64,000 bases of DNA from NCBI GenBank assembly GCA_964583485.1, contig CAZOVC010000002.1:2959-66958 (forward strand). Reading direction: 5' to 3'. This document shows positions 14,139 to 15,629 of this stretch, piece by piece (positions within the stretch are counted from its first letter, which is position 1; the number at the start of each line of letters is the position of its first letter). The position numbers and the translations under genes were made by a program. This DNA is from an uncultured Candidatus Saccharibacteria bacterium (GTDB taxonomy: Bacteria; Patescibacteriota; Minisyncoccia; Minisyncoccales; GWA2-38-27). The notes beneath the pieces are model-generated. The model had not been told where the DNA came from. It ran no database searches and saw only the letters and a list, made by a program, of their open reading frames with translations.

Positions 14139-15629
14139 TTACTTTGGACGCATTGTAGGAAATAGAATTACTTCTTTTAACGAGTGCGAATCAGTTAATA
14201 AAGCTGTTAATCTGTCGATTCCCATTCCAAAGCCAGCAGCCGGAGGCATTCCATACTCCAGGGCCTCAATAAAGTCCTTGTCCATTCTCTGAGCTTGTTC
14301 AAAACCTTTTTTAAATATCTTTTCCTGCTCTTTAAATCTTTGCTCTTGAACAAGAGGATTATTTAATTCAGAAAAAGCTTTGACTAACTCAATTCCCATA
14401 GCAATAAATTGAAAGCTCGCTGATTTAGAAGGATTTTTATCTAATGGCTTTGCCAAAGGAAAAGTTTCTGCAGGATAATGGATAACAAATGTTGGCTGTT
14501 CTATTTTAGGCCTAATAACTTTTTTAAATATCTCATCAGTTATTTCAAACTTTCCTCCTTTGCTCTCTATGCCTAACTTTTTTGCTTCTTTTCTAAGAGC
14601 GTTCTCATTTATTTCCTCTAAATCAATTTTAGTGTGTTTTCTAAATATCTCATTAAATTCAACCCTTTTATACGGAGCCTTAAAGTCTAATCTCTTTCCT
14701 TTACCCCCACTACCAAAATTTTGGTGTGGGGGTTTATATTCAATAATTGTTTTATTAAATAAGTTTTTAATCACAAAAGCAAGCATTTTTTCTGTAAACT
14801 TCATCAGCTCTTTATAATCAGCATAAGCCCAATAAAACTCAAGCATTGTAAAATCAGGGTTATGAGCCCTATCTATTCCTTCATTTCTAAAGCATCTTCC
14901 TATTTCATATATTTTTTCAAACCCGCCTACTAAAAGACGTTTTAAATATAGTTCTAAAGATATTCTTAGATATAAGTCAATGTCTAAAGCATTTAAATGA
15001 GTTTTAAACGGCTTTGCCGTAGCTCCTCCATAAATTGGCTGTAAAATCGGCGTTTCTACTTCTAAAAACCCTTCTTTATCTAAAAATGACCTGATTTCTT
15101 TAATAATTCTTGAACGTAATTCAAACCTTTCTTTAACTTCAGGATTAAAAATCAAATCCAAGTATCTTTTGCGATAACGCTCTTCAACATCTTTTAATCC
15201 ATGCCATTTTTCAGGCAAAGGCAAAAGCGATTTGACCAGAATCTTGTAATCAGCAGCTTCTAAGGTTTTCTCTCCTTTTTTGGTTTTGAATAAAATCCCT
15301 CTTATTTCAATAAAATCGCCGATGTCAAAATTGTCCAGAAAAAACTGAAAACTCTTTTCTCCCAACCGGTCTTTTTTGAATAAAGTTTGGATTTGGGCTG
15401 CGCCGTCTTTAATGTGGGAGAAAACCAATCCGCCGTGCTGTCTCAAAGATATTATCCTGCCTGCTAAAATTATTTCTTTTTTCAGCCGAGCCAGTTTGCT
15501 AAAATCCTCAAGAGCTTGTTGGCAAGTATGGGTTCTTTTTGTCTGGCCTGGATAAGCCGAAAACCCGACATTCTCAATTGCCTTAAGTTTCTTTATTCTA
15601 TTTTTCCGAATTTCATCAATAGTCGCCAT
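14139..15629 (-). CDS. lysS: Lysyl-tRNA synthetase, class II; carries an in-frame palindromic insert
   Basis: [27 protein letters not shown] motif 2 region and a GFGMGIDRL motif 3. Segment [13 protein letters not shown] is encoded by the palindromic element at 14700-14736. Confidence 0.88.
   Translation of the reverse strand: [496 protein letters not shown]
14700..14736. repeat. Copy B of the bulged palindromic element (tttacccccactaccaaaattttggtgtgggggttta), in frame inside lysS
   Basis: Its reverse complement matches copy A at 36 of 37 positions. Also explains the antisense ORF 14560..14817 containing PLPPLPKFWCGG. Confidence 0.6.

Follow-up and report, generated by a model that had tools for sequence, protein, structure and literature searches.

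An in-frame insertion in the lysyl-tRNA synthetase gene

We analyzed a window of 64,000 nucleotides (nts) from an uncultured Candidatus Saccharibacteria bacterium (GenBank assembly GCA_964583485.1, contig CAZOVC010000002.1, positions 2,959 to 66,958 of the forward strand). Within this window, the gene for lysyl-tRNA synthetase (lysS, encoding LysRS) contains a short, nearly palindromic insert flanked by a 4-nt direct repeat. The features of the gene and of the insert are as follows:

14139..15629, minus strand: lysS, class II (IIb) lysyl-tRNA synthetase of 496 amino acids, reading frame intact
14703..14735, minus strand: in-frame insertion of 33 nts, residues 299-309 of the protein; edges ambiguous by up to 4 nts owing to the duplication
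14704..14732: near-palindromic core of 29 nts, with 14-nt arms and an extra base in one arm (T on the plus strand, A on the coding strand)
14700..14703: TTTA, left flanking direct repeat, putative target-site duplication
14733..14736: TTTA, right flanking direct repeat, putative target-site duplication

The lysS product matches PF00152 (4.1e-89) and PF01336 (7.5e-12), the Pfam signature of a class II Asp/Lys/Asn synthetase core with an N-terminal anticodon-binding domain of the oligonucleotide/oligosaccharide-binding fold (OB-fold), and chains of solved LysRS structures align with it over its full length (E-values of 5e-134 to 1e-119). Motif 2 occupies residues 247-266 and motif 3 (GMGIDRL) approximately residues 468-474, both of which are conserved in the alignments of homologues. 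A first-pass annotation, made from the DNA letters alone, had placed a palindrome-encoded peptide between these two motifs, and residues 299-309 indeed lie there.

On the plus strand, positions 14704-14732 read CCCCCACTACCAAAATTTTGGTGTGGGGG, which consists of two inverted 14-nt arms plus an additional T. For the hairpin of this core, the predicted free energy is -21.9 kcal/mol in RNA form and -13.0 kcal/mol in DNA form (z of about -4.4 to -4.9). The 29-mer pattern was not matched once in 100 shuffles and none is expected by chance; a chance palindrome was ruled out by this control. Exactly these 11 residues are missing from 19 close homologues and from all of 108 homologues (108/108; 72-91% identity), and their absence from every aligned homologue ruled out an ancestral loop. 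HMMER alignments to solved LysRS structures also open a gap at the position of the insert. Among the best 120 homologues, a length of 496 amino acids was observed only in the identical protein, and the others are mostly of 482-488 amino acids. The same conclusion can be read from the DNA: the empty site in the orthologues of loci L001 and L002 is ...ATT GAA TAT/GAA GGA AAG... (the slash marks the junction), and the filled site of the window is ...ATT GAA TAT AAA (CCCCCACACCAAAATTTTGGTAGTGGGGG) TAAA GGA AAG..., which adds the 29-nt core and a second TAAA, 33 nts in all.

A sequencing or assembly artefact, or a lysS pseudogene, is an explanation that deserves almost no weight. Palindromes can disturb assembly, and the lysS gene of a sister sample (L175, 27-1484), which lacks the insert, has 100% DNA identity to the window over approximately 830 nts before identity falls to 70-85% about 55 nts ahead of the insertion site, making it a possible chimera; L001 is the opposite mosaic. 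These two mosaics would be explained either by recombination inside lysS between strains that occur together or by a chimeric assembly close to the palindrome. On the other hand, the identical insert-bearing LysRS is present on 13 contigs, and the five shown represent five samples and two assembly pipelines (Logan and JGI), which excludes an assembly artefact, the circumstance under which the first-pass annotation would have fallen. The reading frame is also intact, members of the element family described below vary in sequence and have flanking duplications, and most of the family is found in a single bacterial group and not across all taxa, with no match in viral contigs.

Very probably, then, lysS has recently acquired a miniature palindromic mobile element by in-frame insertion, one that belongs to a dispersed family and is tolerated as a loop. 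This level of confidence covers three points jointly: that there is an insertion, that there is a family of mobile elements, and that the loop is tolerated. The mobile palindrome proposed in the first-pass annotation is borne out by empty sites with a 4-nt duplication at two genes, by a third copy in the window and by the dispersed family.

Predicted structural setting of the inserted peptide

The structure of the insert-bearing LysRS was predicted with AlphaFold. A model from 20 sequences was poor (mean predicted local distance difference test score, pLDDT, of 47.5), and a model from 109 sequences was used instead, with a mean pLDDT of 80.6 and a predicted template modelling (TM) score, pTM, of 0.78. 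Comparison of this model with solved LysRS structures (3e9h, 9jkl and 1bbu) by Foldseek gave TM scores of 0.77-0.79. In the model, the insert is flanked by strands 295-298 and 312-315; residues 303-309 have pLDDT values below 50, and the adjoining ten-residue blocks average 86 and 90. The insert is predicted to extend the tip of a beta-hairpin, in the segment between the helix after motif 2 and the helical insertion domain. The model therefore predicts a loop, in line with the structural check proposed in the first-pass annotation. The Gly/Pro-rich added peptide would be tolerated at this hairpin tip, distant from the conserved motifs, and the insert-bearing LysRS is presumably still active.

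Other LysRS proteins of Patescibacteria have lineage-specific inserts of their own: P0014 has one of 22 amino acids (TKPLTIFPKSNQVKQTGQKMVR) in its OB-fold domain, and P0042 has one of seven amino acids (ALPAGRQ) in its helical insertion domain.

Additional copies and an antisense open reading frame

Besides the lysS copy, the following related features were identified in the window:

3952..5364, minus strand: gene for a GT2-GtrA bifunctional glycosyltransferase with a second in-frame copy, read as LPPLPNFWCGG
4441..4477: second copy, consisting of TAAA, a 29-nt core (4445-4473) and TAAA; the extra-base variant GGTAGTGGGGG, as in the lysS copy
4488..4503: possible degenerate half-copy (low confidence), TAAA-GTCCCCAGGTCCAAAA; on the coding strand FWTWG versus FWCGG
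42911..42946: third copy, intergenic, consisting of TTTA, the 28-nt core TCCCCACTACCAAAATTTGGTGTGGGGA (42915-42942) and TTTA
14560..14817, plus strand: spurious antisense open reading frame (ORF) of 85 amino acids with a TTG start, wholly inside lysS, reading the palindrome as PPLPKFWCGG

The core at 4445-4473 lies on the other strand, in the opposite orientation, and differs from the lysS copy by one mismatch; the glycosyltransferase ORF contains LGLPPLPNFWCGGLFL. Compared with the orthologues at L053 and L054, in which the empty site is CTG GGT TTA/TTG TTA, the second copy is a 33-nt insertion, and the filled site reads CTG GGT TTA (29 nts) TTTA TTT TTA. The empty sites of lysS and of the glycosyltransferase gene each keep one copy of the tetranucleotide. 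The third copy is located 9 nts upstream of the start of the ORF at 42501..42905 (minus strand), and it has the same extra-base variant as the other two with one central base fewer. This variant (CACTACC/GGTAGTG) is common to all three copies of the window, which argues that the bulged form is itself the spreading unit in this genome.

Next to the half-copy and, in the coding direction, 21 nts upstream of the element, the glycosyltransferase gene has a net deletion of 27 nts relative to its orthologues. Half-copy and deletion may be the scar of an earlier insertion.

The antisense ORF contains FPLPPLPKFWCGGLYS and has no Pfam match. As the first-pass annotation had argued, its likeness to the glycosyltransferase insert (PPLPKFWCGG and PPLPNFWCGG) arises because the shared DNA element is a palindrome, whose opposite strand encodes a similar peptide, and the ORF itself is spurious. 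A palindromic element that yields look-alike peptides from either strand, and within proteins of no common origin, is an annotation trap, which can lead to false domain or homology calls and to spurious antisense ORFs.

A family of short palindromes in Patescibacteria and other phyla

Two collections were scanned for related elements. The Genome Taxonomy Database (GTDB), represented by one genome per species, was searched with a degenerate pattern and yielded 45 loci, nearly all in Patescibacteria of many classes (Nealson-, Saccharibacteria, Giovannoni-, Harrison-, Falkow-, Berkel-, Doudna-, Wolfe- and Portnoybacteria) and a few in Omnitrophota or Ratteibacteria. Two of them, L010 and L035, look like chance terminators. 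A metagenome scan for longer centres added at least 120 loci. In total, at least about 170 related copies, mostly from Patescibacteria, were found in these scans. A palindrome scan of viral contigs gave 0 matches and thus no evidence for a phage vehicle.

The outer 12-nt arms are invariant across the family (CCCCCACACCAA...TTGGTGTGGGGG) and the centres vary. The canonical form is a perfect 28-nt palindrome, CCCCCACACCAAAATTTTGGTGTGGGGG, and the 29-nt forms are longer by one base, added either within an arm or in the middle. Among the metagenome matches listed, identical 12-nt arms surround centres of 6-36 nts. A few longer members of 77-143 nts are non-coding and have unrelated interiors. The 29 + 4 = 33-nt anatomy of the insertion, the third copy of the window and this cross-phylum family with its length rule (see below) are absent from the first-pass annotation.

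The densest locus observed is that of Parcubacteria Gr01-1014_33 (L005, 380-4361), with five copies in 8 kb, all of them within 4 kb, two of which are in frame in one P-type ATPase gene; these copies have flanking repeats of their own (TAAA, CTTG, TAAA and CAAG). This genome may suit a search for the mobilising enzyme. A 29-nt copy is also present at one shared position of TatD in MAG182 (L026, 4823-4851) and in Portnoybacteria RBG_13_40_8 (L047, 1687-1715), with flanks decayed to TTTA/TTTG; it is an older insertion that has been inherited vertically.

The CCCCCACACCAA hairpin, in a version of 53-56 nts, also caps the middle hairpin of a larger conserved repeat of approximately 190 nts, forming its apex. 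This repeat consists of three long hairpins closed by TGAG.../...CTCA and was observed at L086 (about 6990-7230, minus strand) as well as in L115, L165 (two copies), L076, L124, L146, L149, L087, L079, L099 and others. It ends in GCTCATTAAAGGAGG, right before the start codons of unrelated housekeeping genes (ACP, L35, IF3, ParB, GmhA, ArgB and rubrerythrin), and has no Rfam family at the gathering score. One copy (L144, minus strand, 1781) contains a different middle hairpin (CCCAGCACCT...). In addition, at the intergenic copies of L015, L021, L058, L067, L008 and L075 the flank TTGA is followed by CA, so that a -35-like TTGACA hexamer abuts the hairpin. This adjacency could mean that promoter boxes are preferred targets or that promoter activity has been selected for.

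Flanking repeats and the reading-frame rule

Flanks were counted with anchored patterns in 133 copies not nested in a larger repeat, among the matches listed; matching that tolerates insertions and deletions shifts the edges of the element and masks the duplication. The 4-nt flanks on the two sides are identical in 64/133 copies and differ by one mismatch in 33/133, and a shifted control gave identity in only 4/133. The 64 perfect repeats comprise TAAA (35), TATA (12), TCAA (6), CAAG (5) and a few others. Moreover, position -5 in the 64 copies with perfect repeats is G in 43/64 and A in 16/64, and never C. This bias exists on one side only and defines a preferred target of roughly R-G-T-A-W-A.

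The length of the copies depends on their location. Among the GTDB copies, 21 of those with 29 nts are inside long ORFs and five are outside, whereas only three of those with 28 nts are inside and 24 are outside (Fisher p = 2.9e-7). Likewise, among the metagenome matches listed, the length plus 4 is divisible by 3 in 26/34 copies within ORFs compared with 46/90 elsewhere (p = 0.014). The split, with 29-nt copies in genes and 28-nt copies between genes, is explained by the survival in genes of only those copies whose length plus 4 is divisible by 3. No frame of the core contains a stop codon, and the TAAA flank closes two of the three frames on that strand by TAA. In-frame hosts elsewhere are diverse housekeeping genes and include AlaRS, PheRS-beta, PNPase, CTP synthase, MiaB-MiaA, TruB, TatD, ComM, FemAB and P-type ATPases. 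The simplest reading is that insertion is blind to genes and is followed by purifying selection on the reading frame, and the 28-nt/29-nt split is thus a natural experiment in which purifying selection filters insertions by frame. In the streamlined Patescibacteria, essential enzymes, including several aminoacyl-tRNA synthetases, absorb selfish DNA, presumably as surface loops.

These data also bear on the proposal that the hairpin is a selected functional module, such as a protein-binding or RNA-structure signal, and that the lysS copy was recruited for regulation (translational pausing, mRNA stability or a DNA-binding site). Its 12-nt arms are invariant across distant phyla, the 53-56-nt subgroup sits at the apex of a three-hairpin repeat directly upstream of many housekeeping genes, a -35-like hexamer abuts several intergenic copies, and the RNA hairpin is strong (-21.9 kcal/mol). 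We nevertheless consider this proposal highly improbable. The copies have landed in unrelated genes and at varied positions, they have flanking duplications and are present in some lineages but not in others, and the rule on frame and length is a prediction of purifying selection acting on random insertions. Binding of a transposase would account equally well for the conserved arms, and Rfam searches of the window and 10 loci at gathering thresholds detected tRNAs only, with no match to the element.

Possible mechanism of insertion

Under the mobile-element reading, the element would consist of nothing but two abutting 14-nt inverted arms (CCCCCACACCAAAA and TTTTGGTGTGGGGG), here with one extra base that brings it to 29 nts. 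Integration at a TAAA site would have left the tetranucleotide on both sides; 29 + 4 nts make 33, by which lysS would gain 11 codons, and the gene stayed open because the palindrome is stop-free in every frame. It seems about evenly balanced whether a trans-acting transposase of the DDE type produced the flanking repeat by cutting its target with a 4-nt stagger. Duplications of 4-5 bp together with C-rich ends fit enzymes of the IS1380/piggyBac-like kind. The donor might pass through a hairpin or fold-back form, which would explain the palindromic variable centres.

Several observations weigh against this reading of insertion by a conventional transposase. Neither the window nor 1.2 Mb of loci, which are fragments of genomes, yielded an autonomous element or a transposase with these termini, and the enzyme class is therefore unproven; solitary arms and pairs of arms 62-4000 nts apart were searched for in the same 1.2 Mb, and no pair encloses a gene, only non-coding members of 77-143 nts being found. 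A duplex of 28 bp looks too short and stiff for conventional synapsis, in which both ends would be inserted 4 bp apart. A G at position -5 on one side only is not what one would usually see if a dimeric transposase acted on a symmetric element. Many of the variable centres are themselves palindromic, yet they differ between subfamilies. At the lysS locus, the empty sites of the relatives have GAA where the window has AAA, and either the ancestral lysS target differed by one base or it was altered later. The lack of an interior, the palindromic centres and the one-sided target preference fit poorly with a conventional MITE (a miniature transposable element with inverted repeats). All three point to a hairpin or fold-back intermediate, and they leave room for a rival that resembles repetitive extragenic palindromic (REP) sequences and their REP-associated tyrosine transposases (RAYTs). 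An element without an interior poses a puzzle of synapsis, provided that the mobilising enzyme can be found.

According to this rival, a single-stranded hairpin is moved by a tyrosine HUH transposase (a RAYT or a TnpA of the IS200/IS605 type), which integrates it 3' of a tetranucleotide, and the element carries the same tetranucleotide at its own 3' end; the apparent target-site duplication would then not come from the repair of a staggered cut. Such a route would agree with an element that is wholly a hairpin, with the many variable centres that stay palindromic and with the tolerance of one unpaired base. The asymmetric flank G-T-A-A-A, present on one side only, recalls the one-sided GTAG tag of REPs, and REP copies of 20-40 bp have been documented within genes that code for known proteins (PMC3733652). 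Furthermore, the empty sites cannot tell a true duplication from a tetranucleotide borne by the element. We still regard this rival as unlikely, since copies whose cores are identical differ in their tetranucleotide (TAAA, TATA, TCAA, CAAG, TGAA and others). The cleavage site of IS200/IS605 elements is set by guide bases encoded in the element. Copies of the present family also lack the GTAG/CGTC tag, have the flank consensus R-G-[T-A-A/T-A] and carry the tetranucleotide on both sides, and a tblastn search of the window with queries for IS200 TnpA and Escherichia coli RAYT returned no match. In the 1.2 Mb of loci the sole tblastn match was an IS200-like gene (L121, 5237-5680), which was rejected as a candidate: the hairpins flanking it are unrelated and it is 5.6 kb from the element.

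Comparison with known palindromic elements

A close parallel is provided by the Rickettsia palindromic elements (RPEs; Ogata et al. 2000, cited in PMC10969869), which are palindromic inserts lying in frame in Rickettsia genes. Both systems are selfish palindromes in frame in many unrelated housekeeping genes, where the fold tolerates the added peptide; unlike RPE-1-type elements, which have approximately 100-150 bp and are described as restricted to Rickettsia, the present element has only 28-29 nts (up to approximately 60 nts or more in relatives) and occurs in many classes of Patescibacteria and in other phyla. A clear 4-nt flanking duplication also distinguishes the element from RPEs. We know of no sequence resemblance between the two, and the colonisation of essential enzymes in Patescibacteria can be seen as a prokaryote-wide parallel to RPEs.

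Like REPs (PMC3733652), the element is a G+C-rich stem-loop of 20-40 bp with conserved stems and variable loops, is sometimes located in genes and has a one-sided flank feature. Unlike them, it has no GTAG/CGTC tag and has the same variable tetranucleotide on both sides, no RAYT was found in the window or in the 1.2 Mb of loci with the queries used, and the number of copies per genome is apparently low. In addition, many copies of the element are in genes, whereas REPs are mainly downstream of genes.

With bacterial MITEs (Correia/NEMIS and MITEAba12; PMC10969869) the element shares terminal inverted repeats, a target-site duplication, a dispersed distribution, the possibility of in-frame fusions and a lack of coding capacity. 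Inverted arms of 12-14 nts, a duplication relative to the empty site and three copies in 64 kb were all observed here. Unlike MITEs, the minimal element has no internal sequence, the interior of many longer relatives is palindromic, and no parent insertion sequence is known. The bacterial MITEs known to us are larger, from roughly 100-150 bp upward.

Outside bacteria, the GC clusters of yeast mitochondria and the byp elements of Magnusiomyces are short G+C-rich palindromes that spread in an A+T-rich genome, coding regions included. They differ from the present element in their domain of life and in their sequences, and byp elements are skipped by ribosomes, whereas the lysS insert is in frame and presumably translated.

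A string search of 8 million papers gave no match to the DNA strings of the element or to the encoded peptides, and a keyword search returned no description of palindromic or MITE elements in the candidate phyla radiation (CPR) or Patescibacteria. In-frame palindromic inserts as such are already known from Rickettsia, and REPs within genes have been documented as well; what sets this family apart is the size of 28-29 nts, the 4-nt duplication, the lack of REP tags and the host range. With a confidence that falls a little short of even, we propose that the elements are an undescribed cross-phylum family and the smallest known bacterial transposable elements: a bare 28-nt palindrome with a 4-nt duplication at R-G-TAAA-like sites and a probable hairpin or fold-back intermediate, which colonises essential genes where its length plus 4 is a multiple of 3, and whose hairpin, as the apex of the approximately 190-nt repeat just ahead of housekeeping genes, gives a hint of a shared recognition protein. 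Strain-level variation in CPR metagenomes might also be followed with the invariant 12-nt arms as a marker.

Other features of the window

The third copy is at the left edge of a region (42001-54000) with a G+C content of 0.36-0.46, compared with approximately 0.32 elsewhere in the window. Translations of this region include an apparent ABC-type efflux set (permease, ATPase and periplasmic adaptor-like protein) and a sigma-70-like factor. Several perfect inverted repeats unrelated to the element were also detected: a perfect 48-nt palindrome at 20084-20131 (AATACGAGAACTGTTCTCGTAGAG and its complement), an inverted repeat at 52153-52242 with 22-nt arms 46 nts apart, and palindromes of the form TGCCAAAAAT...ATTTTTGGCA at 17263-17296 and 15738-15771, one of which is just upstream of lysS.

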